Below are positions 8,606-54,100 of a DNA stretch of 64,000 bases, piece by piece. Made by a program: the position numbers and the translations under genes. Each line of letters opens with the position of its first letter. Within the stretch, counting starts at the first letter, position 1. Under the pieces are notes generated by a model. That model searched no databases. It saw only the letters and a list, made by a program, of their open reading frames with translations, and was not told where the DNA came from. The stretch is from Botryllus schlosseri (taxonomy: Eukaryota). The stretch lies in contig CM119371.1 in the NCBI GenBank assembly GCA_051294905.1, forward strand, positions 41,480,001 to 41,544,000, read 5' to 3'.

Positions 8606-10867
8606 TCACTTTTCACCCGTAACCTTGATTTTGTTGATACTACTTTTGGAAACGTTAAGTTGTATCATGGTAGATGGACCATCAGTATTCGCACCTCCGG
8701 ATGCATTCTCCGACGTGAACATTTCGCCATTAGGCACACCGATGCACAATGGCAGATAGACACTCTCGCTTAAGCGAAGGTACTTGTATCCTCTTACGGT
8801 AATAACGCCAGGATCACTTACTTGCACATCCTCAAATTGGGAGCGTTCTATCTGGACCCCGTGTGATTGAAGTTCATCACAAATCGGCCCCGTGAGCGAT
8901 TTTTTCCTTGTGGCCGCCGAGCTCTTTCCCACGGGAATTGTATTAGTGTCCGCATTAGGAGAGACATACTCATAATTGCTGGTGTTTTGGTTTTTTTCAA
9001 ACTCAGTGAAATTATATGAATACGGTTCCTCGTTAAAGAATATAGAAACTTTGATTTCTCGCTCGAAACATTGTAGGCCACTCACATAAAACCAATTATC
9101 AAATCCTGGTTTTACTTCCAAGTCCAAATCGATCAAATTCTCCGAAATGTCGCCGATCGATGTTTCGTTGGAGTAAACCCGAAAATCGATGAATGGCGGC
9201 CCGTCGAAACACATGGAAATAATTTCCACGGCTGTCTCGCCAGCATCGGTGTCTTTCTGAGCCACGGTAGATTTTATATTATCTTGGAGGCTTTTGATGG
9301 TTTCGAAACTCGGTCCATTGCGATTCGATTGCAAGTTGAACTTCTCAGGTACGGTAAGATACTTTTTCTTAACCTTGTATCTTAAACCATCCTCATATTC
9401 AATAACAGCTTTACCTCCACGTTCGTATCCCACTAATCTTGAAGCGGTAGTGAGAGCTCTGACGACATCACTCGGAATAGAGAATCCTCGCAAAACGGCC
9501 TTAACGTAGCTGGGCGGACCCACATCCAGAAATACGGAGGATCCAATTTTTATGTTTTGCACCAAACTCTGGACTTTATAGTGATTTTCTTTCTCGTCTT
9601 CCGTGGCCTTTCGCAATGTGGGGGCTAAAACACCTACTTGCTGATTGCAGTTGTACTTTATCAAATAGTCGAAATCGTCGTCAACCAATCGCACTTCAGC
9701 AGTAGTACGCAAATATTCAAGAAAGGCAGTTGGTACTTTTGTTTTGCGTATGGCATCCCTGATATCTTCAATAAGCTTCACATTGACGATGTCACCCCTC
9801 TTCAACAATGGCTGACCGTTGCAATCGTCATTGTCAGTGGTTTCAAGAGATACAAGACATTTCGGATTCATCACCCAGAATCCACCCAGTTTGTATTGCA
9901 CTGTCACGTTCCCGTTTTTCTTGATGTGAATTATTGTAACTTGTTTCCCCGCACATTTCGTCATATCAGCTGACCAACCACCATGTCCAGATTGATATTC
10001 CACCAGCTTCCTGATGTCGATGATGACTTTGCATTTGTCCCCGACACTAAACCTGTCGTCGTGGTCTCTCTGGGGAACAGAAAGAGGCGTTTCCTGGTCT
10101 TGACATTTTGTTAGTATCGCGGAATTCACGTCGTAGCTGGTGCGCTCGTTGAAAGTTACAACGATAGCCACTTTTGTAACTGCGATTATTCGCCCTCTTC
10201 GCTTCAGCAACTTTTTTGGTATTTTTTCAAGGCCCTTTTGTACTATCTGAAATGCTCTGTCATCGTCCGAGGCAATCACCACGTAATCATTCACGTTCCA
10301 ACGTGATACGATTAGATTTTCCTTTTGTCTTTCTGAATCAGGAATTTTCTCCAAAAGCCCAGCATAAATTACACTGTACGAAAGTCTCGTTGGCGTATAT
10401 ATTTTCACTCCGTTTTCAAACGAACTCCATCGCTTCGTTACGACTGCATCAAAAGAATGAATAGTGTATAGACGCGGATTCCATCCCAGAGTTCTGTACT
10501 GAATGCTTCGAAAGTCAGACCTGGAATAACGAATTCTGACCCAATCACCTAGTTTGAAATCCCAGGAATCTTTCACGGGTATTTCAACTTCAACAGGCTC
10601 GTCGATAAGGGTTAGGCTGTTTGGTACTTGACTGATAGCAAATTTATCAGCTAATGAAAGTATACGAGCTTTACTTGAAGCGTGCAGTAATTCCACTGTA
10701 GAAGCCATTTTTTGCACGTCCTCGGCTCCATTTCCTGACGTTGTATTGAGAGACTCTTGTAAGTCATCTCTAATCCGTTTTAAAGCGTTTATGTCCAGCC
10801 CAGAACTCAGCTTTGAAATCTCACCCTGTCCCATCACGTACTTCACCGAGAATAAAATACGATTCAT
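8606..10867 (-). CDS. Intronless 753-aa protein with five Mind bomb SH3-like (MIB REP / SH3_15) repeats; no ankyrin/RING seen
   Basis: The best repeat, FSVGDKCKVIIDIRKLVEYQSGHGGWSADM...GNVTVQY...WVMNPKCL, matches the MIB1/MIB2 REP pattern (F.IGD.V.I..D...Q.GHGGW...M...W..NP..L). Four more diverged units start FKLGDWVRI, WNVNDYVVI, LKRGDIVNV and IKIGSSVFL (about 9350-10558). Confidence 0.75.
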   Translation of the reverse strand: MNRILFSVKYVMGQGEISKLSSGLDINALKRIRDDLQESLNTTSGNGAEDVQKMASTVELLHASSKARILSLADKFAISQVPNSLTLIDEPVEVEIPVKDSWDFKLGDWVRIRYSRSDFRSIQYRTLGWNPRLYTIHSFDAVVTKRWSSFENGVKIYTPTRLSYSVIYAGLLEKIPDSERQKENLIVSRWNVNDYVVIASDDDRAFQIVQKGLEKIPKKLLKRRGRIIAVTKVAIVVTFNERTSYDVNSAILTKCQDQETPLSVPQRDHDDRFSVGDKCKVIIDIRKLVEYQSGHGGWSADMTKCAGKQVTIIHIKKNGNVTVQYKLGGFWVMNPKCLVSLETTDNDDCNGQPLLKRGDIVNVKLIEDIRDAIRKTKVPTAFLEYLRTTAEVRLVDDDFDYLIKYNCNQQVGVLAPTLRKATEDEKENHYKVQSLVQNIKIGSSVFLDVGPPSYVKAVLRGFSIPSDVVRALTTASRLVGYERGGKAVIEYEDGLRYKVKKKYLTVPEKFNLQSNRNGPSFETIKSLQDNIKSTVAQKDTDAGETAVEIISMCFDGPPFIDFRVYSNETSIGDISENLIDLDLEVKPGFDNWFYVSGLQCFEREIKVSIFFNEEPYSYNFTEFEKNQNTSNYEYVSPNADTNTIPVGKSSAATRKKSLTGPICDELQSHGVQIERSQFEDVQVSDPGVITVRGYKYLRLSESVYLPLCIGVPNGEMFTSENASGGANTDGPSTMIQLNVSKSSINKIKVTGEK

Positions 10868-10874
10868 CAACGAT

Positions 10875-11307
10875 ACGGTACCAGGTAAGATCAGCCACTG
10901 TATTCACGTCACGTCACGTCACGTCATCGAATTACCACCCTTCTTTCAAGTATTCTATGGAAGATGAAACGCGATGCTGTTAGCTGCGATATTAAGTTCC
11001 GCATTTCTGTTGCGCCAGACAGGACGCCTATGTTTAGGGTTAGGGTAAGTTTTAGGGTTATACAGTCACATGCTGAAGTGACGCATGCTGATGTGTTCCA
11101 TGCTGAACTGTCGTTTTCCATTGTGTCGCATGCTCATATGTCGGGCAACCACGGTACCAGGTAAGATCAGCCACTGTATTCACGTCACGTCACGTCACGT
11201 CATCGACTTACCACCCTTCTTTCAAGTATTCTATGGAAGATGAAACGCGATGCTGTTAGCTGCGATATTAAGTTCCGCATTTCTGTTGCGCCAGACAGGA
11301 CGCCTAT
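10875..11307 (+). repeat. 157-bp direct duplication (10875-11031 and 11151-11307) with (CACGT)4 and a TTAGGG-containing spacer
   Basis: The two copies differ at one base (GAATTACC vs GACTTACC). The spacer contains TTTAGGGTTAGGGTAAGTTTTAGGGTTA. Confidence 0.9.
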
Positions 11308-20239: not shown

Positions 20240-23200
20240 TCACATAATCCTAGCCCGCATCTGCTTGCTCTTGTACATCTTCTTATCGCGCTTCCTCGCC
20301 TCTCTCTTGTTCTGAATGTCCTCCAGCTTACGCTGCTTGTCCGGATCTTCCTCGTTCATGATCCTTTCCTTAATCGCCTTCTCCTTCTCCTCGCGCTTCA
20401 GCTGCGCCTCTTCCTGACGCTTGGCGTGGGTCAGTTTCAAGAAAGCGAGCTTTACTTTGTTACGGTTTTTTTCCGCTTTCACCTTGTTGTTGAGGCGTAA
20501 CTTTCTCATTTTGTCGGCCATGTACAAGGTCATCTTCATTAAAGGCAGTAGCTTTGAGATGTCTTCCGCCGAAGGCGTGCTCCTGTCACAGTGCATGTTC
20601 AACATAACGTTTAAGGTTTTGGAAGTAGGGGGACGCTCGGTAGGCGGTTCGTCTACGTCGCCAGGTTTTAACCCAGAGTACTGATCCGAAATGTGCATGT
20701 ACTCGAAATACTTTTCGTTCTCGTTAATCACTTTACGGACTTTAGCGTCTAACACGCTTCCGACTTCGCTCCAGATTTCGGCAGCGACAGTCATGCTTTC
20801 CGGTAAATCGTACTTGTCGGCCGGACGCATTTTGTCGACGCAAAAATAGATTAAGTCCTGCATGTTTTTCTGTAAGATGCCGATTGACTTTTTGGCGCCG
20901 ATGGCTAACACGTAGGGGTCCATGTCTTCTAGAGTGACGGTTATCATCACCTGGTGGATAGAAGGAATGTATTTTATCATAAATTCAAATACGAACACAA
21001 ATTTTAGAACACACGAAAATATTGATAGAATTGAGATGGAATCATGCTTGTAATGACTCGAGTCATGACTTGACTCAATTTTTTGATGACTTGAGTCATT
21101 TTCTCAAAATACGGAAATGACTCGACTCGAGTCAATCTGTACATTGACTCGACTTGTACTTGAGTCATTGTGCATTAATCGAACCAAGTCATATGAATCG
21201 AGACTCAGACGGTCAAGACCGACATTTCATTGTAATTTCAAGGAATAGGCTAGTAAAGTAACCACACTGTTGATATTTCATCTATTGGTACTGGTACTTG
21301 AAAATGCGGCCAGAAACTGTTAAAAGTGAGGAAATTAGATACAAACTATTCGATATTAGCAATCAAAGTTATAAAAAGTGGCTTTAACAAGACTTTAATT
21401 GGAAACTGAGCAGTAGGGTTGTCCAAAATTTGGAAAATCTTTAAAAGTCTCTGTGATTGTGACTCATTCTATAGATTATTGATAAAAAACAACAATTAGC
21501 CTGAAAGAAGCTTACAGGAAAGCCGTTAAGATTTCGGGCAAAGCGTTTGAAAGTAGCTGCTCAAGAATGGGCGTGCCACCGACCATAGAACGGCGAGAAG
21601 ACTAGTAATCACATAACCACGGCTCTTGATTGGCTAGTCGGCTATGCTTCAATGATCACGGCAGCAGCAGCTTGCTGATTAGGTGTTGAAGGAGTCTGCT
21701 ACCAGCGGGGGTTCTGCAAGCGCATTGTGGGTAGGTTCGCAGATGATGATTTAAGATTAATTCAGGACATGTTGAGGTACGAAAAAAAATGATGAACAAA
21801 CAACAGCTGCTTCACAAAACCTTTTACGGCATGACTGCTTTATTGTGAAGGAAGCGGCTGTAGCCTACATGCAGCGTTTTCATCGAGGAAAAGCAAAGGC
21901 GCTTATGCAAGTGGTGAACGAATTCCCCGTTTAACCGATTGGGACCGGCTGCAATTTTCGAAAAATTTTGCTTCAATTTTCAAAAACGAAAAACTGTACC
22001 TTAATGGGATTGGAACACGACAGCCAAGGTAGCGTTCGAATCAGAAAGTAAACGCGGATCCGATTGCGCTACTCGCTTTCATTTCGAGCCCTGTGTCTGG
22101 CCGCTTATATCGAGAGCAAGCCGAGAATTCGTTGATGAGAAACGTATTACATTTACTGCACTCTTTATAAACCTTAACATGGATATCTGGTGACATAGGC
22201 TTCTTGTGAATCATATCGGCGAGGAAATCATGATCATGGAGATGGCTCAGTCGATATAATACGCCCTAATATCGCCATTATCCATTAGATACAGTACTGA
22301 CGGTTTGCACAATAAACACGCACCAGGCCGCAGAGTGAATGAGTCATCGGCGAGTGAGCGAGTGACGCGCGTGTATTTATTAGGTAGCGTAGCCTTCCAG
22401 GGCATTTACAAAGCTTATAGAGCACGTAAATGGGTCACTTTAGTATTGATAAACGGAGATTGTCAAGACCTAACCATAAGGACAAACCACAAACGCATAT
22501 CTTAGTTAGTTGGTAGCACTTCATACAAACATGATACACACGTTTGCGCGGAATACACTGCGTGTAGAATTGGTCTTGTTGCCATATATACATCACTATT
22601 AGCTGTTAGTCTGATGTAGATATAATCTTATGGTAATGTACTCTCCACAGAAACAATCTAAGAATGTCAACTACCGATAAAATTCAGGATATAACACATT
22701 ATGTTATGGATATTCGTCCCTGCGTTTGACACTAGTGTGGTAGTCTGCAGGAATTCTCTTCACGATATTCAGAAGCGGCCTTGGGGTGACATAGGCATAA
22801 CTAATGTTGTTTATTTTGACCTTGAAGGTGGAGATTGGCTAGTTCTATTGAAAGAGACAATCCGTAAATGTCTTTCATTACTACAACGTAAGATATATAT
22901 CGTCATACGACAGCTCTTTGTATATCCTGATGCACACTTTTGCGTAGGTATATGCGCTGAGTAATATTGTATTTATTCCGAAATATACTTGACTATTAGC
23001 CATTATTTAGAATCGTATAGGCAACAACTATTCACAGACACAATCTATGAAGGTATATCACTATTAGAACTCGATATATATCCCGTTATGTGACCAGTAT
23101 TCATCCATCTGCTTGAAGCTGGTACGGTAGGCTGCGAGAATTCTCTTCCGGATTTTCAAATGCAACCTTGGGCGATGCAGACATAACTAGTATAGTTGTT

Positions 23201-24912
23201 TTAGCAAGAAAATCAGAAGCTGACAAGCGCTATTCATAGAAACAAACTACAACAACTGGCTATGACGAATACAACCAAATATACGACAGGGTATATGATG
23301 TGTATCGGGAACGCGCGTTTCCACGAAATGATGCGGTCGGCGGATATCTTTGTCACGCGGCCTATCACATAGATTTTGAACACCTTATATGTAACTAATA
23401 TCAGATATGAAGATATGTGTGAACTTGTATGGACACTAGCTTTTCACAGAAAGAAACAACTATGCTCTAAGACGGCTAGAACAAAACATACAGTACGTTA
23501 TGTGAGAGTGGTCAATGACGCGCGTTGCCGAGACAGTGTATTTTGCAACATATTTATCTACGGTATTTGATATCCGATTTCGACGTCTTAGATATAATAT
23601 ATATCAAATAATATGGTATCAATGAACTTGCACAAACAATATCCATTCGCAGAAATGAACAGCAGCGACCTAGCGCGATTAGAACGGGATATATAGTGGT
23701 TCTATTACAGTACGCTTCCCTCGTACCGGCAATGGGTAAAAATACCCACGCCGGCGCCAAACGGTTAAGAAGGGATCCATCATCAATACATGACTTGGAC
23801 TCGAGTCATATTACCATGACTTGGACTCGACCCTCTGCTCGCTGACTTGGACTCGGACTTGGTGGTCAATTGAAATTGACTCGACTTGACTCGAGTCAAA
23901 ACTATAAAAGTAAGATTGACTTTTGACTTGGTTACAACCGTGATATGATGTAGTACTCGCACTATATTCTGTGAGGCCGCGTAAAATATACATATTGGAA
24001 CATCCACATCTTTCACACGGTTATGTCATCATAATCAGTGATACTGAAATACTCGACTAAGAAACAAATCACTCTGGTACTCGGATTTTGCCCAGCCTTA
24101 AGAGTAAGATAATAGAATTATTGATTTCTCACCTTGTCTTTTGTAGGCTTCATTTTATCGGCGATAATCGACACCAGGTCTTGACGCTTCATCAACCTCA
24201 ATTCGACCAGCATGCCTTCCACGCACGCGCGGCCAGAGCACCACAACGTAAAAATATGTTCCGCCTCTTTCGTCATTTGAAAGGTGCTAGCCGCCGTTTT
24301 GTTTTGCGGGTCGTCGCCGATTAACTCAAACTGAGACTCGAGAAGTTCTTTGTGTATTTTAAGCCAGCTGTTCGCGATATTCGAATTCTTGTAACGTCCC
24401 GTCAAGAAATTGATGGCGTACACGAGTAATCCGACACACATCATGATTTCGATATAGTATTTGTCCCAGCTTCTCGCGTGGAGTGGAACATTTTGTATTT
24501 TAAGCTCCGGTTTCCCTTGCTTTTTGCTTTTCGCTTTCTTATTTCCGTTTTCCCAAATCGTATCATCACCATCCAAGCCTTCAAACTCTTCAGGATCTAA
24601 ATGTTCAAATTCATCGCTATCTTCAACCTCGACAGTTGCGTCTTCGTCTTGAAATTCGTCTAATTCATCATCGAATTCATTCTCATCTCCCGCGTTTGAT
24701 GCGTGAGATTTTCCAGAGTTTGATTCACTCTCTGTTGTTATATCATCGGGCTGAGTGTCATCGAAATCCTCGTCAGCCGCCTCATCGAAATCTTCGAATT
24801 CCGCAAATTCGTTGTCTTCCAAGTCGGCTCCGTGTAGATTTTGAGCCAAGGCTCGACGATTGAGCGCCACGAGACAGCACGTGGCGAGTAATATAGATAA
24901 TAGTAATTTCAT
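20240..24912 (-). CDS. CCDC47: PAT complex subunit CCDC47 (calumin), 496 aa, 2 coding exons: 24912-24133 and 20950-20240
   Basis: Signal peptide, acidic lumenal stretch, TM (YYIEIMMCVGLLVYAINFL) and hallmark segments GRYKNSNIANSWLKIHKELLESQFELIGDD and FTLWCSGRACVEGMLVELRLMKRQDL. Exon 2 has YMHISDQYSG and the basic coiled coil KLTHAKRQEEAQLKREEK...EEDPDKQRKLE. Phase-0 GT-AG intron. Confidence 0.95.
21048..23942 (+). mobile_element. GACTCGAGTC-family MITE split (21048-21413 + 23783-23942) by a 2.37-kb insertion in the CCDC47 intron
   Basis: The intact copy at 48910 reads GGAAACCGAGCAG|TCAACACA. Here the left half stops at GAGCAG (21413) and resumes TCAATACA at 23783. Confidence 0.75.
21935..23764. 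mobile_element. piggyBac-like non-autonomous element
   Basis: TTAA on both sides (21931-34, 23765-68). Imperfect TIR CCGATTGGGACCGGC / GCCGGCGCCAAACGG (12/15). No transposase ORF. Confidence 0.6.
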
Positions 24913-25035
24913 TGTGATTACGACGCTGTAAAATTGGTTTGCTACATATGATATTATTATTGCACAACGTTATAGCAAAATAGTTGCATTCAAACTTCGA
25001 GTAGATAATTCTATACGGTATAGTTACTAATCAGA

Positions 25036-25521: not shown

Positions 25522-26974
25522 AGAGATAACTATTACACAACGGTACATGTGCGTAGTGCGTGCATAAGTGACACAAAATAGTTGCATTTAACCTAAGGAG
25601 TAGATAATTCGATAGTTATATCCAATTATAGAAAAATAAGTGTAATTTAATTTGTGAAATGCCTAAATGCTCTAATTTTAATTCTATGTACGCTAGCCTA
25701 TAATTATCGTAAGATACAGCAGCAACATTTCAATATACCTCTCCTCTGGCCATAATGGAAGGTAATATTCAATTGTGAATCGAGTGACTAGTTTAGATAC
25801 GACCTAACAACATGTAAAAATCTACACAGATTCCCAAGTTCATTAACGTCGAAACGACATTAGTTTTTGTTTATGGACGCCGGACGGTGCGTCAACGTAA
25901 TGGGTTTGGTCTTACGGTGTTTATAATATCAAGTCCAGCGAAAGAACGCAGTTGCCCGTGTCGGGATACATCTTACATCGGCGTGTCACTGTTGTAACTG
26001 GACTGGAACTGTAATCATGCTGCTGATTGGGGTTCTTATTCTACTGATAGTGTCATTATAAGTTCGTGCATCATGCAACGCATCTCACTTGACTTAAACG
26101 CAACCGCTGTCTACGAAGAACTGCAAAGTATATCCCGGGTGCGGCATTACCGGCAATGCACATAACATTTGGCACGAATCAATATCAAAAATTCTTCCGA
26201 AATCTCATGTCACTACGTGTACATCGAAAACGACGCTGGATGTTACGTGCGAGTTACGCGCAGCGATCTGATTAATTTATATATTTTTTCTCGGTAAATG
26301 CATTGATATATGTTGGAAGCGACTTTTAGTTTCACTATATACGTGGACACAAGCAAATCTCAGGGCTCACTGCGATTATTTACGTCCCACTTTCCATTTG
26401 GCCAAAGGAAATTTTATAAAGGCTATTTTTTACCATCTTGCCGAGAGCGAAGATTGATAAAATTGGTATCAATCGAAAGCTACCGCAATACTGAATGCGA
26501 AAATATAAATTTTGTTTCGCTCGTGGTCCTGGAACCCACCGAATCATCAGCTTCGAATATCGCATTCTAACGGAGTTGGGCATCGTGACGCCGGTCTGAT
26601 AATCCGACACATATTGTTCCCAACTCGTACACGTTGGAAGATATGCAAGGGTGTCTTTGCCATAAATTTGTTACTTTTTTGCTTCATTAAAATATTTGGA
26701 AGACGAATAGAAGTAACAGCAGATTCTTCCAAAATCTCTGTCTCATGCTGGCAACGTAGAAGCAGGGAATACACGAAGAGTTGTTGTTCACTGTCTATTT
26801 GTCCATTGTATTTCTATACTTCTACATAATGAAGATAATGCTGATGTAATATTTTTTCTCACAAAAATCACCTTCCGTGTAGTACTGCAACAACGTTATC
26901 TCTTGTAACGCCGTGCAACAGCAACACACATCCACTAACCCTCACAATCAACCACCACGCATTTCTACAAATCT

Positions 26975-26980
26975 TTTATT
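26975..26980 (-). promoter_or_regulatory. Likely polyadenylation signal of the STAG gene
   Basis: AATAAA on the minus strand about 180 nt after the predicted stop at 27157. Confidence 0.55.
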
Positions 26981-27156
26981 GCAAGAACGTAAATGGGACC
27001 AACACAAATACAAGGCGGAAACACCACTGAACAAAAGAACAGCCGAATAAACTGCGTTAAACTAGAAACTCCTTCATCATAGGCAGCGAACGGTCACAGA
27101 TCAACATAATCTCTCAGGACCTTTGTGTAACGAACATCACTGGGTCGATAAACATT

Positions 27157-30100
27157 TCAATTTCCGTAGAACTAAAAAGAATAAGAGAATTTGTTAAGCA
27201 AATATAAGAGCAATGGAGGTCGGTAACGAAGTACTTGCACTACTAGATCAGGTTATGTTTAGGCCACTTCCACTTGTACTTGCCACTCTTGCTAGTTTTC
27301 AGGCGAAACCACCAACTTTTTACACTTTGGTGTTGAAAACTAGATGAGGGTTTTGTGCTAGGTACTTCAACCAAATTTACTATTAGAACCAACTTGTAAC
27401 TTTTCAAACTCGCTACTTCTTCGAGTACAAATCGGGGAGTTAATTCAAATTGAACAGACTAATACGCATCTATGATTCCAAACGTATTTTCAATATACTG
27501 ATCGACAAATGATCCATAATTGTACAATGTACTAGACAGCATTCACCTGTTGTTGTCCTTGAATGTTGTGTTGCATCGGGGACTGCATCTGCATCTGTTG
27601 ATATTGCTGAGGCTGGTAGATCATCTGCTGTTGCTGAGGCACGACATATTGCTGTTGAGCCTGCTGGGAAGTGCCCGGCATTTGCTGCTGTTGGTAGCTT
27701 GCCTGGTGGTAACCTGTTACGAAGATGTGAGAGTTGGATTTTCGCTTAATGGACAATATTAGGCATGCAAAATTTGATATTTTGGTATCAAAAAACTATT
27801 GAGATAGGAGTGGTGTACAAATAAAAAACTACTCGTGTAAATGAAGCAAGTATTGGAAACCTACTTGAGTACTACAGAATAGTAGAAGTACTTCATTACT
27901 AGGGCTGGACAAAATGATTTGGATAATCGAGTATTAATTATAATGATAATGATTTGTGTCAAGTGATGATGATGATTATTCCCAGTGCTGAAATGATGCT
28001 TGTAAGGACAAATTTGCAAATCGATACATGTCGAAAGAAAAAAGTCCCATACCCGCGTGCATTGGCGACTGCATGTGGTGGTTTGGTGACTGTAAAGCCG
28101 CGCCCATCAAGTTCGGTTGTCTGCAAACAAAAAAAAGTAGCCTCAAAAATAGTAAACTGAAAGCCTACATTACAGGATTAGAAAATAGAGGCTTAATTGA
28201 GCGTGTGACATCGCCATATACATTTGCCAACCCTAAATTCGATTAGGTCTTATAGTTACGCGATATATGGGGTTGAATTCAGAAGGTAGAAATCTCCACT
28301 CTACACAATATACAATTAAATAATATATTCCTATTGATGTGACCAGAATATTTTTTACTGCTAAGTCAAGTCATCTATTTCATCTACATCTATTTCTATG
28401 TTATAATTTTGATTCCAATATAATTTCTGAATTTAGGAAGAAAAAAAGGGAGTAGCAATAATTCTATTTCATATTTAATTAGGAAACAAACTGTGTACCT
28501 ATTATGTTACTTGTAACTAGTTTGGAAAAAATATTTGGGTAGCCAGAATTCTAATCTAATTCGATAAACCTGTGTAGCTATAATTCGAATTATGATTTTG
28601 TTAGAAAAAAAAAACTGATGTAGTTCCAATTTTAATTCTTTATCTAGTTCCGAAAAGATAATTGTGCAGCTATAATTCTAATCTAATTCAGAAAAAATAA
28701 CTGTGTAGCTATAATTCTAATTCTAATCCAGTTCAGAAAGAATAACTGTGCAGCTATAATTCTAACTTATCAAATTTTGAAAAAATGATGTGTACCCATA
28801 ATTCTAATTCTAATCTCGTTCAGATAAGATAACTGTGTAGATATAATTCTAATTCTCATCTAATGTGAAAAAAAACTGAGTTACCATAATTATAATCTAA
28901 TGTGGAAACAAACTGCATAGCTATAATTCTAATTTTAATCGAACTTGGAAAAAACTGAACTGAAAAACACAAAAAGTTGCTAATCTCGGCAAGCTAACAC
29001 AGACTACAACACAAAATCTCAACCTTTTCTTAACCACTTTCTTCTTCTCCCTGAATCCAAACATAGCTGCGAAATTGTCGTCTCCATCATCGTCACTAGA
29101 CAAGGGAGAGAGATATGAGTCGTTCTTCTGATTCGAAACCGCATCAGAGAAATTATCGTCAGATTCGTCCTCGGACATAAAATCCTGGATGCGCTGGCTG
29201 GGCGGCTTTTGACTGTCCTGACTGTGAATCTCCCTGATTACGTCCGCGAACGCCCCGAATTTTTCAGACACATCAAATCGTTTAGTGACTTCACCGCTTT
29301 TTCCCCCTTTTTCCAAGAAATCTACGTTGTCGACGTCTGAAATATGAGTGTACGCGGTGGCCGTACTCTTTTGGGTCTCTACGTCTAATTCTGGGGCTAT
29401 TTCGGCATCACCACCTCCGATATCAGACACGTTTTTGCGGAAAGCTCCTGCTATTTTTGCAAACGGGTTTACAGAGAGCCCCTCGGATTGACTCGCTTCG
29501 CTAATTTCCGATAAAGTCTCGAAATTTGTGTCTTCCACACTCATATTTTCATCAAAAATGTCTCCGGAAGGCTTTCCCTTCGATTTTACACCATTTGACA
29601 CTTTTTCGTCCAGTTTCTTTTGATTCGGAGAAAATTGAAAATCCCCAGTAAATTGGCTGCTGTCGTCATGCACGCGAGACCCTTCGATATCTTCCTTCGC
29701 GTCCTGCCACTTTTGCATCACCTCCTCGTCGATGGTTATATCTTCGAACGTGACGTCACAGTCCGAAACCTGAGCGATTCTCTTCAAAATGTCGGAAAAA
29801 TTACTTTCATTGCCAGGGTCTCGACTTGTAGCGGCCGCAGTTAAGTCTACGTTCAAAGTTTTGGGTTCATCATCATCAGAAGAAGCTTCCTTGTAGGACA
29901 CATCCGCTTTTCTCTTGCGCGTCTGGTAAGGGGAGGCAGTTTTCTTGTTTTTAGGGGCGCGATTTTGTTTTCCGGCCTTGAAGGATAATTTTGGTGTATG
30001 TTTCTTCACCTTTGAGCTGGAAGACGATGAATTCCCACCACTGTCTGACGTAGAAGATGATTTCCCTTTCGTGTTTGTGGATGATGATTTCCCACCCTTT

Positions 30101-33100
30101 GTAGTTGAAGGTAATTTTGTCACTTTTTGACGGGATTTCCAGTTCTTTTCCTTATTAAACTGTACGTGGGCGACCGCGTCATAAAATTCTTCATTGTCAT
30201 CCTCTGTAGACTCTCCATTTTCATTATTATCCACATTTTCCGTAAGTTTCTTTCCTGCTTTACCAGTTTTAGCGATCCTTTGAGACTTTCTCTGCGGAGA
30301 TTTCGTCATATCCTTATTGCCATCTGTGTAGTAGTCATCAGTTTGCGAAAGCTGTTCTCTCACATCTTGAGAAGTTAAATCGCCTTCGATACGCCCTTCC
30401 CCCTCAAAACCGCACACAATTTCTTCGTGTAGATTAAGCAAGGTGTCGGTTTTGGAAGTGCTTCCGCTAAACTCAGGGCTGAACTCGTCTATATTATTAT
30501 CCAAATCGGAAACGGCACTGCTGTTCTGATCTGCAAAGTCGTATTTCCTGTTTTTCCTCTCAAAATCTTTGACGCTCGCTTTTCTCATCCTGTCGCTGAT
30601 GTCGTCCACCTTCCCGCCTGTCTCCTCCGTCTCGAATATGGACGATAACAGAGAAGTGCTTCGCGAACGGGTGGTTCTGGACTGAAGCTTCGCTGTCGCT
30701 AACCAAGATTCGAGCCTTTTCTTTTTCTCGCTGAAAGATAGCTCAAATTCGGTTTTATTGCCGAGATGAAAATCTTGTTTGCTACAGGGCAAGACTATAA
30801 TTCAAAAGCAAGGAATTTGAAAATTGTAGAGAAATAACGGGAAAAACTTCACAACTTATATAAATCCACGTAAAATTTAGAGCCAGCTTTTCAACCCTTA
30901 TACTTTGATGCCTGGTAAAGTTTCAAAACAAATTTAATCTTTGATAATCAAAATCAACCCAAAAATTAACCACGAAAAATATACGCCTCTAAAAAGGAGG
31001 AGCCTTCAATCCAATTGACAAATTTGCTGTCTTTTTGATACTACACCTGTTATATGGTACACCAGAGGTCATATTCTTAGAATCCAGTATCGTTACAAAC
31101 AGGGTTATAAAGACTGAGTCGCGATTGTTTGGTGACTTGAATTGACTCGAGTCATTTTTTCAAATATGTAAAATGACTCGACTCGAGTCAATTCCTCTGC
31201 TGACTCGACTGTGCATGACTCGGACCAAGTCAAATGACTAGAGACTAGGACGGCCAAGACCGACATTTCATTATAACAGGAAGAAGAATAGTAAAGTCAC
31301 CACATGATTGCTATTTCGTCTGTCAGTCCTGATACTTGGAAAATAGGGCCCTGAAACAGTCAAGATTGAAGAAAATTACCATATTATGAACGAATAGAGA
31401 TGGAAAAGTGGGCTCGGACATGACTAGACTTATCTTGGGTCCAAACTATAAAGGTGAGATCGACTTGCGAATTGGAGCCTCGTGATTTGGTTACAACCCT
31501 GGTCACAAATAATAACCCACGACAAATTTTACCCAAAATGGACTCATTAGTAAAGTGTTACAAAATCTATATTATGCTGGAGAAAATACCTTCAAAATTT
31601 CTAAATCCTAAATTTTTAAACAAATTTGATGCTTGTTATCTCTCCTCAATGGACAAAGTGCCCAACATCTTGTACTTTATAATTGAGATGTAAACTCGCA
31701 AGACTCACTGTTGATATCCCATGTCTTCCCGTCGCATTTGACGAGGCTGTATCACATCACGCGGTGCGGTAGACGCATGCTGCAATACGCAATACAAACG
31801 ATAAAACCCACGCGATTCCAATGATTGCATTGACCCACCTGTGGGTTAATCGGAGTCATAGGCGCTGGACTCATGGCGGTAGCGGGGGTCATCGGGGTTC
31901 GGGGCCCATCTCCATCCAAATCTCCTTTCTTTCGTCTTGGCCTGCCACGACCCTGGGGTGAGAAATGTTGACGTTGGTCTTTATTATACCCAATAATCAG
32001 TGTTGGGATCAAGTCACAAGTCAATTCGAGTCATAGCACAATTTGACTTGTGTCGAATTTCCAAAGTTTGAGGCATGATTCAAACCATTGCATTTTGCAA
32101 GATGATTACAGTATAGAGCGATTTACTATCAATTATGAATCGAGTAACGAATTTCAAGTTAATTACACCTTAAACGGGGTGATGTAAAAATGAAAAAAAT
32201 CCATGTGGCATTCCGCTTCACTAATAAAATGACTGCAAAATGCACTTTGAAGGTGTGTGGTTGGTTTAAAATTGGCTTTACAAATAGGACTTCAATGCCC
32301 CACGAATTAGCTACTTTATAAAATGCAGAGTAGGCACTAGGCAACCTCACAATTCTTTCATTATTTATTATAGAGCTACCTACTATAAATACTATTATTA
32401 CAATTCAAAAATTTTGAAACAAAAATTCTTCTTGGAGGTACAAAATTTCAATATACAATTGAATAGTATAATCGTATTGAAACGAACCAGAATATTCTCG
32501 GCTGACACTCGTCAGGGGTAATCGTCAGCTACTAGTCGATAATTGGAAAGAACATTGTATATCAACAATATGACGTCACCAGCATGAAAATTCAAGTAAG
32601 AGAGCGTTCAATGTACTATTTTCAGATGGCACACGAATCGTTTTTGTTGACAAAGACTTGGCTGCTGTATTTTGATAAAAGTCGACTCCAAGGCACACAA
32701 ATCAAAGTGTGAACGGCCCCCTCCCAACCACTCGAAATCTGTTACACAATTTCATTAGTGTGCCTTGAACTCGACTTTCATCAGAATATACCAGTCATGG
32801 CTGGGTCAACAAAAAGAGTTTGTTTGCAAAATTGTACATTGAACGCTCTCTTTCGAGATTTCATGCTAGTGACGTCATATTTTGTGATACGATTGTTGAT
32901 ATACAATGTTCTTTCCAATTCTCTACTAGTTGCTGACGATCACTGTATGACGAGTTTCGGCCAAAATATTCAGGTTCATTTCAATTTTCAATATCATTAT
33001 ACTATTCAATCTAAAATTTAGTATTTCAGGCTGTTCTTTTGACAATTTCGCTTACAAACGTGGCACGATCTTACCTCAAAACTACTCTATACTTCGCAAA

Positions 33101-36100
33101 ACCCTAAGTGTCTGAAGTATTCCCTACAAAACTGCTGACCTACAAGTGGAAGTATTCTCAAAACAAAGCCGTTCAAGTTGTTCAAGATGTTAAAACCTAA
33201 TTGGGTACTTGAAAATAGTGGCATTACTTCCTTGAAGGCCACCTCGGAATATAGGCCTACCCGTCTATACAACCACGGCAGAATATTACCTTGGACGATG
33301 GTTTGGCGTTGTCTACATCTTCTGCCCCTTGCACCAAAGAGTTTCTGTAAGTCACCAACGGGATCCAACCTGGTCGGAAAACAATTTAAAATAAACGAAA
33401 AACAGTTGGGCGAAGATTGTCGGTGATTCGAGTATCAATTTATTCCTTGCCATGCTATAAGAGTTAAATTCACCAAAAATTATAATTTCAATACTATTTT
33501 CCACTGTGGAAAGCTGTAGACCTAGATTGGTCGTGCAGCTACACACTGATGTTGTTCAAAAATTACTTTTTCATCTGGATTCCAAGGATTCAGTGATTAA
33601 ATTGTTAGGCCATATAAAAAATACACTACACACCAAATTGGGCTCTATTTCAACTGGTAGATGAAAATTTTGAATTTACCAAAAAAAACTCTTCAAATTT
33701 TACTGTTGACCCGATGAAATGGTTGAGCTGCGTACAAAAACGATGCAGAACAAATTTTACGCAATTCCAACCTGTAGAAGCAAAGTTATCCAAGTTTTTC
33801 ACCCATAATTCTGGGATTACTCACCGTCCTGGCAATTTTGAAAAAAAAAAATTTCAACTGCAATAACTTTGTTTCTATCGAGAATAAATTGGTAAGCATC
33901 GTTCTTTTGGACAACTTAAACAATTTTTAGGGCCTGACAGTGAAATTTGACAATTTTCTTCCAAGTTTTTTTACAATCAATTCAAAATTTTAAAAGTTAC
34001 TACAAGTTAAAATCGAGCGAAATTTTGTGTGCAGCATTTTTCGGGCAAGCCAACAAATTAATCATCGGGTCCCTGGAATCCGAAAGAAAAAATATTTTTG
34101 AACAACCCTGGGACGCACATTCGTGGAAATTACAAATCTGTGAAGTCTTGACCATACCCATATCATTACCACGAAGTTCAATGAAATAGGTTTGGTCGAA
34201 AAATACTAAATTATCTTGAATGCGATGTACAACTGGCTTTACATCTACTTTGTGGTCACATAAAAGGTACATATATCAACTTCACACATCTACAATACAA
34301 GGGATACTCAAATACTTAGCGTCTAGTATTGGATTTAAAATGGAATTAATCGGCTATTCGATTTTGCCTAGATCTAGTGATCACGTTGACCGCATCTGAC
34401 AAGCCACATTTTCAACAGAATAAAATCAGTGATCCCATCGACCACGCACGACAAAATTCATGCAAAGTCATACCTGCAGTCTGCATCTTTAACATGTGCG
34501 GCTTGATGTGCTTGTCCAAATAGCTGACGCTGCGATGCCCATACCGTTAATAACACTCGCTAATCGAAACCAACTGATAAGCACTCACACAGTCCTGCGA
34601 TCTTGACGCATAAGCTTCGACGAGAACTCGCACAGTATGCTGAGAAAGCTGAGGTTTTCAGGAGGTACGGAGTCGCCCGCGTGATCGTCGGCACGCTTCA
34701 AAGCGAATAAGATGCCTTCTCTGTCACAGATTTAATATAAAAATTGTGGAGAGCTTCATTGAGGTACAAAACTTCAATATGTAATTGAATATCATACGTG
34801 TATCGATAAAAAAATATTAGGGCTTGTGAATGTAAATTACTTTCGATTTTTGATAACTAGATCTTCATTATTGTACGGTACTTATTACGAAGGTTGGACA
34901 CAATGATTTGAGTAGTAAGAAATGATACTCAAGTACTGAAATTGTATGCTCCTTGGTAATACGACTCCATTTATCAACGACAATTGCGGTTTTGATAGTA
35001 TTAAATACAGTATGGAATGCTGTAAAGCTGGATTAACGAAATCGCAGCATGCATAACATGTAGTACGAAGGCACACACTAGGGTTGTTAAAAAAATAGCT
35101 TTTATTTACAGATTGTCGCGGCTATTAGCAAAAATTATACTCAATCCAGGCTAGTAGAAGTGATGCTATCATAGCTTGATAATTTTGAATATACTATAAA
35201 ACAAATTTTTAAAAAAGTTCAAATTTTAAATTCCAACCGGTAAAAGCGAAGTTATTGATGTTCAAAAATCATGGATTTGAAAGAAAATAGTATTTACTGT
35301 GGGTAGTCCGTGAATTATTAATGAAAAACATGAATAACTTCATTTTTACGAGCTGGAATTGATTCTAATTTGGTTTGCACGGTTTCTGTAGACAACGTAA
35401 CAATTTCATGGGGTTAGCCAATAAAATTTGAAAAAAATCTTTATGAAAAATTCAAAATTTTTGAAGTCTAATAGCTTCACTTCTACTTGATGGAATTGAG
35501 CCAAATTTGGTGCGCAATGTTTTTTTTTAGCAAACATAACAGTTTCATCTAATAGCCGTAAATATTTGAAAAAAAAAAACTACACACATTAGTGGAAATG
35601 ACATACTAGTAAAGTCGTGATCAACATACAGCATTGTCACAAAATGCAATGGAATAAGTATGGTCAAATTTTACCAAATAATTGGTTGGCCCGATATCCT
35701 GCCTCATAACCTCCTCAAAACCAAATAAAAGCCACATACTTGTGCAACGCGGCCACGGCGTCCCGGCACTTGACCTGGTCCAGCCCGAAAGTCAGGGACA
35801 GCCTGCGGGCCAGTTCCTTCATGTGGCCGTACTCCTGCGAGCTGTGGTCCATTTTACCGCCGTGCAGTCGTAACGTCTCGCGGAACAGCTGAAAGAGATT
35901 GATATTTACTTGTCAGAATTAAACTATGTCACAGCTATGTCAAAAAAGTAAAAATTTTGTCAAAATTGTTGCGCAAGGTCAAAAATTTTTATGCATCCAG
36001 CATTTCGTTTGTGTCGTAGATGTTTGCACTGTCTGTGAACTTATCATTTGATATTATACAGCTTATAGTATAGACTTTATAAGCCTACCGTTGCAGATGG

Positions 36101-48100: not shown

Positions 48101-51100
48101 ATGTCGCTCTTTAATTACAATCGCTAACCAACAAACACCTAACGGCATTGTCACCAAGCCATCGAAAGAATTGAGCTAGCGCACGCTAGGCTCGAGAGAT
48201 GGGAGCCAACGCATGCTCGGCTCTAGACGCGATAGTTAGCCAGCGATGATATCTTTCGTACCAGGCCTGTTGCAGATGCGATTGTGTAGGCAAGCGATAA
48301 TATCGTGTGCGCCAATGCAGATGCGAATGTGCAGGCAGCGATGGCACCGGGCCTACTGCTGATGTGATTGTTCATCATGCTCAAGCGAGTGAAACTAGGC
48401 TTGTAGGAGACGCGATAAAGCAGGCAAGCGTCCCAAGCGATGATTGCCGAACGCACGGCAATCAATGACACAATTTCGCGATCATCTCAGCGGGAGATCG
48501 TGTCGCGTTACATTGTGCACAGACATATCTCGTTAATTGGCAACGCGCTTGTAGCTAATTGGCCGCGCGCAATGGGTTACCTCGCTCACATAAGCGGTAG
48601 CAGGTAATGGCGTAAACGGAAATACATTGCGATTCGTTCTAAATAACACAATCGGGGATTATGCCGATTCATGCCGAACCGAATTCTAGGCATGCCGCAT
48701 GCCTAAAAAAATGTCTAGGCATGCCTGGCATGCCTTGCATGCCCAGGTTCGGCGCCTATGCTATCACCAACTGCGTAAGGTTATAAATAGGGCGATTTTG
48801 TTTACCTAAAAAACAGAAAATTTTGACCTAAAATATCAAAATTTTGAGACTTTGTTGACCTCTAAAAATTTAATTTTGACAGAATTTTGACCTCGTTTAT
48901 GCAAATTAGCAGGGTTATATTGACTCGAGTCATTTTCTCAAAATAAGGAAATGACTCGACCCGAGTCAATTTGTGTATTGACTCAACTTGGACTCGAGTC
49001 ATTGCGCATGACTCAAACCAAGTCATATGACTCGAGACTTAGACGGCCAATACCGGCATTTTATTGTAATTTCGAATAATAGTAGAGTCACCACACTATT
49101 GGTATTTCGTCTATTGGCAGGCCTACTGGTAACTTGCAAATGCGACCAGAAACTGCTCATAATGAGTAAAATTAGTAGCCTATATTATAAATGCAAACCA
49201 TTCGATATCACCAAACAGAGTTATAAAAAGTGGGTTTCACAAGATTTTAATTGGAAACCGAGCAGTCAACACAATTACTTGGACTCGGACTCGAGTCATA
49301 ATACCATGACTCGGACTCGACCCTCTGCCCGCTGACTTGGACTCGGACTTTACTCGGTGGGGAATTGAAAATGACTCGAGTCAAAACTATAAAAGTGAGA
49401 TTGACTTGTGACTCGGAGCCATGTCCACCTTTTTATTTCATTTGACCGTTTATGATTCACAATGAGCAGATAACGGGCCATCTACAACGGTAGGCCTATA
49501 AAGTAGGCTACAAGATGTGAAATGATAAGTTCAACGACAGTGCAAAAAAATTTTGACTTTGTCAACAATTTTGACAATTTTTTTACCTAACGATACAATT
49601 TTGACGAATTATTGACTTTTTTGACATGCAAACGCTACAAGCGCAAACATAGTTTGGGAGTGCAATAAATATCACAATTATTTTGCAGCTAGGGTAGAGT
49701 ATGCTATCAGGTTTAAAGAAGTTTAAGAAAACTGAAACTGAACAAGAGCTTCTAATTGACTTAACACATAACACAAAAAAACTCACTCCAATATCATAAT
49801 CAGCAGCTTTACAGCCAGCACGGACACGTCATATTCCTTGTCCACAGTCATAGACACAATGCGGTCCTTGAATCGGCTGGTGAACAGCTTCAAGTCTTTG
49901 GTCATGTCTTCGTGTTGATAGAGTCCGTTCAGGGTTTGGAGACATTTCATGCGCACTTCCTTTTGCTGGGAAATAAATCCGGGATAACGAGTATGTTTCT
50001 ATTAAGAGGGTGCTGAAAATAACTTTTTTACCAGATTCCAGGGATTCACTGTGTAAATGGCTAGGTTGCCTAAAAATTTGCTGCACACTAAATTAGGCTC
50101 AATTCCAGTAGAATCCGACACAGAGCCTATTAAAATTTTTGTAATCATGATAAAAAGTGAAAATTTTTTCATCCAAATTACACTTGTCAACGCCATGAAA
50201 TTATTAAGCTGTCTGCAAAAACGATGCAAAACAAATTTGACGCTATTTCAAACCGTAGAAGCCAAGTTATTTGAGTTTTTCCTTCATAATTCCGGTATTT
50301 TCAATCGTAAACGCTATTTTCGCAAATCCAAAACTCTCAACTGCAATAACATCACTTCTTTGGGTTGGAATTTCGTCCAATTTGTTTTTCAACGTTTTCG
50401 TAGACAGTTCAACAATTTCATGGTTATACCGCAAAAATTTTAAAACCAAATTTCTTCATTTTTTATCATGAATACAAAAATTTCAATTGGCTCTGTGTTG
50501 GCGTATACAGATTGGAATTGAGCCAAATTTGTTGTTCTTGAGTATTAAAGTACTGTAAAATATTATTTGAAATGCTAGTTATAACATATTCTCTCCCAGA
50601 ACAGCTTTTCAATCTTACATGAAATTTTATTAATATCAGTACCTTGTCATGGAGCGTCCACCCCACATATTTCAGATAGCTGTCGGTGAGGAAGACTTTC
50701 GGAAACATCTTCATCCAGACGCCGATTTCTTCCATACAGAGGGCGCGGATGTCGGCCAGAAAGTCACGGTACCGATGTACGAAGATACCCTGAACAATGA
50801 TGTCAGGGTAGCTAATGTAATCAGACAGAGTGATTTTGGTTGAATTTTTTTTCTAATTTCGAGTTTTATTCAATTTCTAAGTTTTTGCGAGTTCATGGCT
50901 AACTCTAATTCTAATCTTTTAGAAAAATATGTGTAGCGATTATCTCAAATATATACTAATTTGGAAAATCTGAAATCTGAAATCTGAGATGGTGACTAGG
51001 AGCCAAGATAAACCAGGGTTGTAATGACTCGACTCGCGATTTTTCGGTGACTCGACTCGACTCAATTGCGCACGACTCGGACCAAGTCACATGACTCAAG

Positions 51101-54100
51101 ACTGGGCCTACCAAGACAGGCATTTCATAGTAATTTCGAGGAATAGTAAAGTCACCACTCTATTATTAGGCCTACTTCGCCTATCAGTACTGGTACTTGA
51201 AATTGCGACCAGAAACTGTTTTAAGTGATGAAAATTAGTATATTATGAATGAGAAGCTTTCGATATCACGAACACAGTTGTAAAAAGTGAGTTTCGCATG
51301 GCATTAACGCGGAGCTAAACAGTCAACATGGACTTGAACTTGGACTAGTGTCAAAACAATATGACTCGAACTTGACTCGACTGCGAATTGAAAATGACTC
51401 GACTTGAGTCGAGTCAAATCTATAGAAGTGGGATTGACTTGTGACCCGGAGCCTTGTGACTTGGTTACAACCCTGAGATAAACCTCCAACACTTGGGTAC
51501 GAATTTTGAATGTAAGGAATACGGACATAATGAGCTCACCTTGAAAATCCCGTTCAGCATACTCTCGATTTCGGACTGCTGGTCTTCAAGCTGTAACAGA
51601 CATCATAGCGATAGTTGTTATAAATGCAAGTTACTGGACACATGCGAAGTTATGGACATATATCACCGGTCAATACTGAGCAAAAGTGCTTTACGTTGAG
51701 AAAGTCAAAATGACTTTTTCGACTAAATTGAGTTGTGATATTGAAGTAGGTGTACAATCTAAAACTAGCAGTCTGTTCATCTTGATCATATTTTGTGATA
51801 CGGTTGTGGATATACAATATTCTTTCCAATTCTCCACTAGTTGCTGACGATTACCCCTGACGAGTGTCAGCTGAAAATATTCGAGATTCTATCAATAAGT
51901 AGGCCTACATATTATTCAGAAGTAGAACAAGAAAACTGATTTCATTAGCTACGCGAGCTTTTAACACCTCGATTTGTAATCTTTTAGCTAAACACCAAAC
52001 TAATACCGTTTTTATTGTGCCTTACAGAGTAACAATAACAATTGTGATGAAAAACTCCTTACATCTTTCCGTTTTTCCAGCAGCAAATCGAGTTTTTCCG
52101 TGGCGCGTTTATTGGCGGCCTTCGCCCTTTCCCCTTCGTACTGTCTCTGCGTATTGTCCAGGTTGACGCTGAGAGCCAACGCCACGTTGACCAGGGCGGT
52201 CATCAGCTTCATAGCTGAAAATATTCAACATTGAGGTCAATGATACAAGTCATAATTTTGAAATGCCCTGGCAGAATACATTCACATTTCAGAAAGCATA
52301 CTTGTACTGATCAAGTTATTTTGATTTTAGACAACTTACAGACAACCAAACGCATACCTGCCAATGTCGCCGTGTGCCGAAAGGCTCGCACTTGCGAATT
52401 GCTCAATTCCGTCAACAGCGTCAGCACGTTGTCCATCATAAACTGATCGTAGATGATCTGGTACTGGCACTGCCTTACCAGGGCCTGAAATACAAGTTTT
52501 TAAAATTAACAGAATATAATTTTTTTTTCAAAATCATCAGAAAATATCCTCAATGTATTATTGTTATGGACAATTCAGTAATATCGACTGCAAAAAATGA
52601 TTCCAAAAACTTAGAAATTGATATGTTGTCTATAAACTTTTGTAGAAAATATGCTCTTGAAGACACTCTTGAAGGTCCATAACTACAATATACAATTGAA
52701 TAATATATTCATATTGATATATATTAGAAAGTATATTGAGCTCAAGAAAGCTTTTCACCTCAATTATTGAAAATTTCATGCCTGTGACGTGATATTTTGT
52801 GATAGGATTGTTGATATACAACGTTCTTTTCCATTCTCTATTCGTTGCTGACGATTACCCCTGACGAGTGTCAGCCGAAAATATTCAGGTTCATTTCAAT
52901 ATTAATATATTACCCGAAATTATGTCTTATACATAGGAATAGCAAATTTCAAAAGGTTTGCATAAGTCGAATGGTAAACTGTAGCTATAATTCCTGCAAA
53001 TACTATAATAATCGTGGGATTCGTGGCATACAAATGCAAAGCCTATAACCTACAGTGTATAGTGTGTTGTGCTATTGATTAAGTGTCATATAGTCCTCTG
53101 CAAGCATCTCTTCTTTTGAATAAAAAATACGCAAGAGGGTGTTTGCTATAACAAATACCTGCACAAAATCCGCAAAGTTTGTCCTAAACTTCTTCAAGCT
53201 CACGCCAGACGCAATAAGCGGGTAATCACCACTGTCCTGTAATAGCAAGACAACATGTTAACATTTTCAACGTTTAGAGTCAGACTCGGGTCACGATTTT
53301 ATGGTGACTCGACTTGAGTCATTTTTTCAAAGGCGTATATGACTCGATTAGAGTCAATTTGTGTATCGACTCTACCTGTACACGAGTCATTGTGCATGAC
53401 TTGAACCAAGTCATATGAGTCGAGACTAGGACGGCCAAGACAGACATTTTCTTGTAACTTGGAAGAGTAGTAAAGTCACTACAAAATTGGTGTTTTGTCT
53501 ATCAGTCCTGATACTTAAAAAATTGGCCTGGAAACTGTTAAGTAAGACGGAGGAAAATTACGGCATTATGAATGCGAGCCATTCTATATCACTCGAGGAT
53601 AATTGAAAAGATGGATTTACCCGAATTGAACTCGGACTCGAGTCCCAACACTATGACACAGACTTGACCCTCTACTCACTGACTTGGACTCGACTTGACT
53701 CTGTGGTGAATTGAAAATGACTCGACTTGACTCAAGTCAAAACTATAAAAGTGAGATTGACTTGTGACTCAGAGCCTTGTGACTTGGTTACATCCCTGAC
53801 TCAAATACTTGACTCAAAGCCTATTACTCGATACTCTACCGAAAGAAAAGGTCTCCGAACGTTGCTATGCCATTCCACAAACCTCGTCAAACTCTTCAGT
53901 CATCCTTTTGATGACGTCTTGAAAGCCTTCGGAGGCGTCACGCAACATTTCGGCCGTCACAGTACCCTTGCATCCGGAGGCGTTGATAAAGAATTGAATC
54001 AGGTCCAGGAGAGCTTCGTTACGGTCAACCTGCGGCAAAAAAACGCAATAAATTGAAGACTCTGTTACAGACTTGTACAACTAAGTGTAAGTGTAAGTTC

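Follow-up and report, generated by a model that had tools for sequence, protein, structure and literature searches.

Why should the STAG gene, which encodes a subunit of cohesin, carry in the intron ahead of its last three exons an open frame of 586 codons? The question is raised by a 64,000-nucleotide (nt) stretch of the Botryllus schlosseri genome (GenBank assembly GCA_051294905.1, contig CM119371.1, positions 41,480,001 to 41,544,000; hereafter the window, with coordinates counted from its first letter), in which about 30 minus-strand exons, lying between about 55300 and 27157, together encode a STAG/SA protein. The frame in question forms a giant exon at 29024–30781 on the minus strand (1758 nt, 586 codons including two split ones), which is coding and alternatively included. 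A previous reading of this DNA, made from the letters only and referred to below as the sequence-only reading, had proposed an optional STAG exon carrying motifs similar to those of cohesin regulators. The explanation that we favour, and consider rather probable, is that of a lineage-specific conserved cassette exon in the C-terminal tail of the only detectable STAG gene, with the motif at the end of the exon as the best candidate for its function.

The minus-strand frame that contains the exon (28924–30801) runs for 626 codons without a stop and ranks second among the 7051 stop-free runs of the window (median 11). Calculated from composition, so long an open run has a probability of about 2e-19, and shuffling the stretch 1000 times gave frames of at most 188 codons. 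An in-frame TGA at 30802–30804 stands just 5′ of the proposed acceptor, in which TAGTCTTGCCCTGTAG (30782–30801, minus strand) precedes the exon and the boundary at 30781 reads ...CCCTGTAG|C; the placement of this acceptor is a prediction from the sequence. At the other end, the donor GTTGAG (29018–29023, minus strand; AAAAG|GTTGAG at 29024) has a T at position +3 and is as weak as had been remarked, yet it is joined to 28120 in an RNA contig described below. The giant exon fits the phase of the STAG exon on either flank, its insertion point lies 83 codons ahead of the STAG stop, and translation with or without it reaches the same stop in frame (FYGN-stop). Boundaries, length and phases all match the sequence, and the earlier observation of a 1758-nt stop-free exon that is frame-neutral whether included or skipped is confirmed.

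Splicing was followed in the Logan contigs of run X1 and in the raw RNA runs X16, X19 and X20, aligned to 26000–36000 of the window at 95% likeness, with reads and contigs of lower likeness excluded and the exon ends from contig joints adjusted to GT/AG. One X1 contig (record 3; 289 nt, depth 32) spans 29024–29279 and then crosses a GT..AG intron (plus strand: CT..AC) to cover 30 nt of the exon that begins at 28120; hence the weak donor is used, and used in frame with the STAG tail. The joint that leaves the giant exon out, 31709–28120, is found in X1 at a depth of 60.8, in X16 in 6 reads from 4 starts and in X19 in 2 reads, which makes the giant exon optional. Eight other canonical STAG introns are found in the X1 contigs, so X1 holds spliced RNA. 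With the donor joint (inclusion, at the 3′ junction only) and the skipping joint both present in RNA, the claim of an optional exon is largely supported.

Depth dips in such alignments are not to be taken as findings, and reads below 95% likeness are dropped, in a species whose sequences differ by about 3.5%; the claim of skipping therefore rests on the junction reads. The X1 contigs differ from the window in 29024–29371 by about that much (9 in 256 and 4 in 119 positions), most aligned raw reads are 95–99% alike, and such high polymorphism limits read alignment at 95%. When words of the giant exon were sampled, X1 was found to hold 0.30 of them, and six runs of unknown type, probably genomic DNA, 0.35–0.58; none of the runs listed as holding exon words has an RNA type on record, and X2–X7, with small word shares for the exon, were not used as evidence. 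By our estimate, the 348 aligned X1 bases with their single-nucleotide polymorphisms (SNPs) can account for only about one fifth of the exon words of X1. Since these bases are too few for the word share, most of the exon is probably in X1 in a form too divergent or too fragmented to align. X20 covers only the 3′-most bins of the gene and says nothing on the giant exon.

Two other descriptions of the exon were tried and rejected. A constitutive exon is ruled out by the skipping joints, and a retained intron or exitron is ruled out by the introns on both sides.

The host gene is recognised by two Pfam models, PF21581 (SCD, stromalin conservative domain; 64.8–64.9 and 34.6 bits) and PF08514 (STAG; 59.7 and 30.1 bits), all matches being above the cut-offs and on the minus strand; in addition, two exons match solved SA-1/SA-2 chains in the PDB with E values of 8e-24 and 6e-20. 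The PF21581 matches fall in two SCD-domain exons (49867–50768, minus strand), where the residues lie that in human SA2 make up the FxF-binding pocket. In an alignment to SA-2, all five of the pocket residues Y297, W334, L366, F367 and F371 are identical in the B. schlosseri protein. When the 495-Mb assembly was searched exon by exon, the STAG locus was the only one matched by the SCD exon and by either Pfam model, so STAG looks single-copy within the limits of such a search, in agreement with the single gene that the sequence-only reading had assumed. The frame of the giant exon is also single-copy in this assembly, and a WAPL gene is present in the genome.

The translation of the giant exon (P0001) was aligned with three open reading frames (ORFs) from Logan contigs of other organisms, P0002, P0003 and P0004, which are 72%, 36% and 35% identical to it, respectively, and more than 100 alignment columns are invariant in all four sequences. 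These ORFs are cluster singletons on contigs of 3286, 3778 and 2975 nt. Similarity stops exactly at the donor: after KK, an R and then L or W follow in all four, and beyond them an unrelated read-through with a stop. The R followed by L or W would fit an AG|GT donor kept in the homologues, and the end of similarity at the donor, together with the read-through, indicates that the homologue contigs (about 3–3.8 kb) are probably unspliced genomic pieces. Selection within the species points the same way as the alignment to the extent that, among the differences between X1 and the window listed in 29024–29371, 7 of 11 are synonymous, against an expected fraction of 0.195 (P = 0.0017). That the giant exon is a real coding exon inside the STAG gene is therefore supported.

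Relatives outside this small set were sought widely. No Pfam family matches the giant-exon segment and no Rfam family matches 26000–36000; a profile search of 1.84 billion representative proteins returned P0002 and P0004 and no other relative. Shorter proteins (30–320 residues), sought as junction-spanning fragments, gave no match, the best score in the ESM Atlas was 0.76, below lead level, and of 155 pattern matches in JGI metagenome contigs 0 were confirmed.

The encoded segment consists of 13% serine, 11% lysine, 11% aspartate and 8% glutamate, with a net charge of −22. AlphaFold2, run with the four-row alignment, gives a mean predicted local distance difference test (pLDDT) score of 43.6, with 450 of the 585 residues below 50, and predicts only short helices at residues 6–35, 352–370 and 505–521. 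Composition and low pLDDT thus agree with the charged, Ser-rich disordered region that had been proposed, as far as a prediction goes. The N-terminal predicted helix (residues 6–35; 30673–30765, minus strand; pLDDT 70–81) lies upstream of M64, which is the first ATG of the big frame: residues 1–63 contain no Met, and there is none between the upstream TGA and residue 64. Residues 17–35, within this helix, are conserved in P0003. Since conserved residues stand where no ATG precedes them, the giant exon has to be joined to a coding exon further upstream.

Conservation along the segment is gathered into about a dozen short blocks, including LHEEIVCGF, IHSQ-SQK and NFA-x-MFGF, and an NPF motif is also invariant. 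Such a block-wise pattern is typical of disordered sequence that carries several linear motifs, and is suggestive of docking rather than of a folded domain. One of the blocks is the C-terminal one, Y556–F576 (29053–29115, minus strand), in which Y556, S558, P559, L560, S561, D563, D564, D567, N569, F570, A571, M573, F574, G575 and F576 are invariant in 4/4 sequences. It contains an invariant SP site and an acidic run, ends in the invariant FGF (residues 574–576; 29053–29061) and is followed by a Lys-rich stretch. Around MFGF, 7 of 9 positions are deep-identical against a background of 28%, which places this block among the most conserved parts of the segment. FGF itself lies in predicted disorder, with pLDDT values of 41–52 over residues 561–585 and no fold predicted from the four-row alignment. 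The GF of VCGFEG (30406–30411, minus strand; G124 and F125, within LHEEIVCGF) is likewise invariant in 4/4.

Is the giant exon entered from the upstream STAG exons, and is it functional at all? A frame open by chance, the decayed remains of a transposon gene or an exon gained recently by non-adaptive exonisation would be in line with the lack of a Pfam family, with relatives limited to three Logan ORFs and with the low-complexity Ser/Lys stretches; we reject this explanation as very improbable, in view of a frame that is far too long for its composition, present in a single copy, preserved without stops in four organisms at identities as low as 35% and with 100 and more invariant columns, spliced in RNA and marked by an excess of synonymous SNPs. 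As to entry, we consider it likely that the acceptor is used from exon 31709 as part of a cassette, exon 31709 being the nearest upstream coding exon and in the right phase, and the proposed link to the upstream STAG exons is based on the phase, on coding sequence that is conserved although it precedes the first ATG, and on parsimony. Several observations weigh against this. The three junctions that the sequence-only reading had singled out for a check in RNA include 29024–28120 and 31709–28120, both of which were seen, and 31709–30781, which is not among the joints listed for X1, X16, X19 and X20. At the likeness used, nothing aligned on 29674–31009 in any of the four runs, and the depth of X1 inside the exon drops toward 5′ from 32 to 9.1 and 0.87. 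The skipping contig of X1 (record 5, 419 nt) continues through 31709 without a break or branch; at the 28120 exon, by contrast, contigs end precisely 30 nt inside it. The downstream contig has a depth of 83.1, close to the sum of 60.8 and 32, and the upstream exons stand at 60.8. Taken at face value, the X1 depths and the unbroken 31709 contig favour tail-exon transcripts that enter from the giant exon without the upstream STAG exons. X1 is, moreover, a probable RNA run of which the RNA type is only guessed. In the raw runs (2026; X16, X19, X20), zero reads lie on the giant exon while the neighbouring small exons are covered (in X20 at the 3′ end only); as a rough estimate for X16, the about 8-fold depth on the 68-nt exon would correspond to about 90 reads on 1758 nt at full inclusion. 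Longer proteins (1025–2925 residues) gave no match to the segment, and no database protein joins it to the STAG body. The unlisted acceptor joint, the unbroken skipping contig, the depths in X1 and the lack of a long database protein suit a separate transcript, in which an alternative promoter or a small first exon, located in the intron 30782–31708 or inside the giant exon, borrows the last three STAG exons to produce a stand-alone protein of about 600–670 residues with a Gln-rich STAG tail and no STAG HEAT body. A further point for it is that the gene caller chose as the start of both P0002 and P0004 a Met at one and the same alignment position, at which the window has Val. We nevertheless hold a separate transcript to be unlikely. 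The missing branch is weak evidence, because Logan contigs drop rare branches and sequences below 95% likeness were excluded; the X1 share of 0.30 of the words of the whole exon exceeds what 348 aligned bases can supply, by the estimate above; P0003 shares the helix that precedes the first ATG, with no in-frame ATG from the upstream TGA to residue 64; and both the fit of the acceptor phase to exon 31709 and the exon length as a multiple of 3 count for the cassette, although each would occur by chance in about 1 of 3 cases.

Granted the cassette, does its FGF act on cohesin? The motifs had been located exactly by the sequence-only reading (YDF 30535–30543, FQF 29632–29640 and FGF 29053–29061 agree with P0001 to the letter, and VCGFEG, given as about 30400, has its GF at 30406–30411), and its suggestion of cohesin-regulator-like motifs is supported for MFGF, which is invariant in 4/4. 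The other two are not conserved, and this counts against a mimic: YDF (minus strand) is found as KYDFA in the window and P0002 (2/4), with EFASFS in P0003 and ECESFS in P0004, and FQF (minus strand) in the window only (1/4), with DRQLSP in P0002, while P0003 and P0004 have SFGFS a few residues from the FQF site and out of register. Counting against it as well, the three [FY]xF motifs seen compare with 1.9 expected (5000 shuffles, P = 0.30), a chance level that bears out the earlier caution that three-residue motifs arise by chance. Neither a sororin box nor a YSR or WAPL-M-like motif turned up in a regular-expression search of the four sequences, and in none of them do the flanks of FGF match the sororin consensus [S/T]-hydrophobic-FGFExL (consensus from PMC10656103). 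The sororin FGF is reported not to bind Scc1-SA2 in the account of PMC11331136, so that an FGF alone is no predictor of pocket binding. A genuine optional STAG exon whose FGF mimics no regulator, and which serves instead as a spacer under phospho-regulation, as a platform where unrelated partners dock, or as a module for localisation or turnover, is consequently given close to an even chance. It would also account for the dozen or so other conserved blocks, none of which is a known cohesin motif, and for the invariant NPF, and it has a precedent in the vertebrate exons SA1 e31 and SA2 e32, which are described as acting on the binding of RNA and RNA-binding proteins (RBPs) and not on the pocket (PMC10238091). 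What speaks for FGF is that the segment has few parts as well conserved as its block and that it sits on a protein whose pocket binds FxF ligands and has its residues intact. A role of FGF in cohesin regulation is, in our judgement, possible though rather doubtful, and its action as a cohesin-regulator mimic, an argument by analogy, slightly more doubtful still.

With these reservations, the mechanism that we propose for the cassette exon is as follows. Skipping would give an ordinary STAG protein, and inclusion would add a 586-residue disordered, Ser-rich, net acidic insert with the frame unchanged. The best candidate for function would be the invariant end block with its SP site, acidic run, NFA-x-MFGF and lysines. 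By analogy with F73GF75 of WAPL, FDF of CENP-U and YxF of CTCF and SGO1, its FGF could fill the aromatic SA-RAD21 pocket; with identical pocket residues and a WAPL gene in the genome, a tethered FGF is a reasonable candidate ligand. An alternative target would be the PDS5 trough that AlphaFold predicts for the FGF motifs of WAPL and sororin. Either target may lead to altered access of WAPL in cells that include the exon. The full scheme, a splice-switched SA with its own WAPL-competing FGF in cis (in the SA-RAD21 pocket or the PDS5 trough), possibly gated by the SP site and the acidic run, is the least certain part and, in our estimation, improbable. If it were true, cohesin would withstand release with no need of a separate protector of the sororin or shugoshin type, and a species with a single STAG would make two functionally different cohesins.

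The pocket in question has several known ligands. F73GF75 of WAPL is reported to bind the composite Scc1-SA2 pocket through W334, F367 and F371 of SA2 (PMC11331136), FDF of CENP-U to bind the same pocket through Y297, W334, L366, F367 and F371 (PMC11182772), and SGO1 and CTCF to use YxF at the SA-SCC1 pocket (PMC10279526); AlphaFold models described in PMC10656103 put the FGF motifs of WAPL and sororin in the WEST trough of Pds5. The B. schlosseri segment resembles these ligands in having a conserved aromatic-x-Phe in a disordered (here predicted) region, together with pocket residues that are identical in this STAG. The difference is that WAPL, CENP-U, SGO1 and CTCF act in trans as separate proteins, whereas here FGF would be part of the SA chain, and splicing would switch it.

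Sororin, like Dalmatian, is disordered, has an FGF followed by basic residues and antagonises WAPL. Unlike sororin, the segment lacks the sororin box, YSR, the [S/T]-hydrophobic-FGFExL context and a Pfam Sororin match, and is not a member of that family. Sororin_middle (PF09666) had no match in the B. schlosseri genome, but the control was also silent, which makes this search uninformative.

The nearest counterparts on the STAG side are exon 31 of vertebrate SA1 and exon 32 of SA2, described as short and basic (isoelectric point about 10) and linked to association with RNA/RBP and R-loops (PMC10238091). The likeness, according to the same description, is that of a frame-keeping cassette exon in the divergent C-terminal tail of STAG, one that alters partner binding and not the HEAT body. 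In contrast to these, the B. schlosseri exon has 586 codons and a net charge of −22, has no detectable sequence relation to them and ends in FGF. STAG3 and other meiosis-specific SA paralogues also provide a specialised SA for particular cell types, but through gene duplication; here one STAG locus is detectable, and the variant would come from splicing. A literature search, mostly at record level, found no description of such a STAG insert, and automated gene models of the species may already contain the exon. What is new is an alternative C-terminal STAG exon with a conserved FGF that is far larger than the vertebrate exons, acidic and unrelated to them.

The behaviour of cohesin is set by short aromatic motifs of WAPL, sororin, SGO1, CTCF and CENP-U that compete for few pockets. 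If the proposed mechanism is true, a built-in splice-switched motif would be a new way of tuning cohesin stability and would show, as a natural experiment, what occupying a pocket in cis does. Whether or not the mechanism applies, it is unusual for the tail of an only SA subunit to hold an optional insert of 586 conserved residues, and the insert offers a handle on the poorly understood C-terminal tail.

The exons around the insertion point, all on the minus strand, were placed as follows. Upstream, the X1 contig joints, with ends set to GT/AG, give STAG exons at 34474–34529 and 33290–33369. The exon at 31839–31952, seen in X1 contig record 5 and in translation, is separated by a 59-nt intron from the exon at 31709–31779, which ends in ...GYQ plus CA in phase 2 and has the joints 31779–31839 and 28120–31709 in X1. 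Downstream, the exon at 28053–28120 provides the acceptor common to both isoforms, with joints to 29024 and 31709. The Gln-rich penultimate coding exon (27547–27713) has the joints 27715–28055 (ends unadjusted) and 27171–27547, and the last exon starts at 27157–27171 with FYGN and the stop, the joint 27171–27547 being present in X1, in X16 (3 reads) and in X20 (6 reads).

Some details of this tail deserve mention. The C-terminal part of the protein (27547–28120, minus strand) is strongly Gln-rich; the vertebrate STAG tail is described as acidic (PMC10238091). The apparent end of the Gln-rich frame at TAG 27532–27534 (...QQQVNAV) is bypassed, as ACAG|GTGAAT (27547) is spliced to 27171 and the protein ends in ...QGQQQFYGN. 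Two introns of the STAG tail, at 31780–31838 and 34530–34588 on the minus strand, are GT..AG introns of only 59 nt, and both are confirmed by an X1 contig.

The introns hold several repeats. A degenerate tandem repeat (periods 37–87, 70–78% matches) occupies 28570–28933, directly downstream of the giant exon. At 32458–33010 there is a near-palindromic element resembling a miniature inverted-repeat transposable element, with nested inverted repeats and 52-nt arms at 92% complementarity; its depth is very high in all runs (up to about 10,900 in X1, and 4–20 in the raw RNA runs against about 1 for STAG exons), it shows joints between opposite strands, and it matches no Rfam family. Another repeated element is found in several STAG introns (31108–31296, 48865–49038, 50959–51159 and 53302–53498, minus strand), with similar pseudo-ORFs (LTWSESC...VESF..FEKMTRV...); the copy at 31010–31343 has an X1 depth of about 965.

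The neighbours of STAG in the window lie on the same strand. They are an ankyrin-repeat ORF at 59122–60615 (498 open residues), two exons of CCDC47 (PAT complex) at 20243–21103 and 24121–24969, and a 765-residue open frame with a Mind-bomb SH3 repeat at 8609–10903, all on the minus strand.

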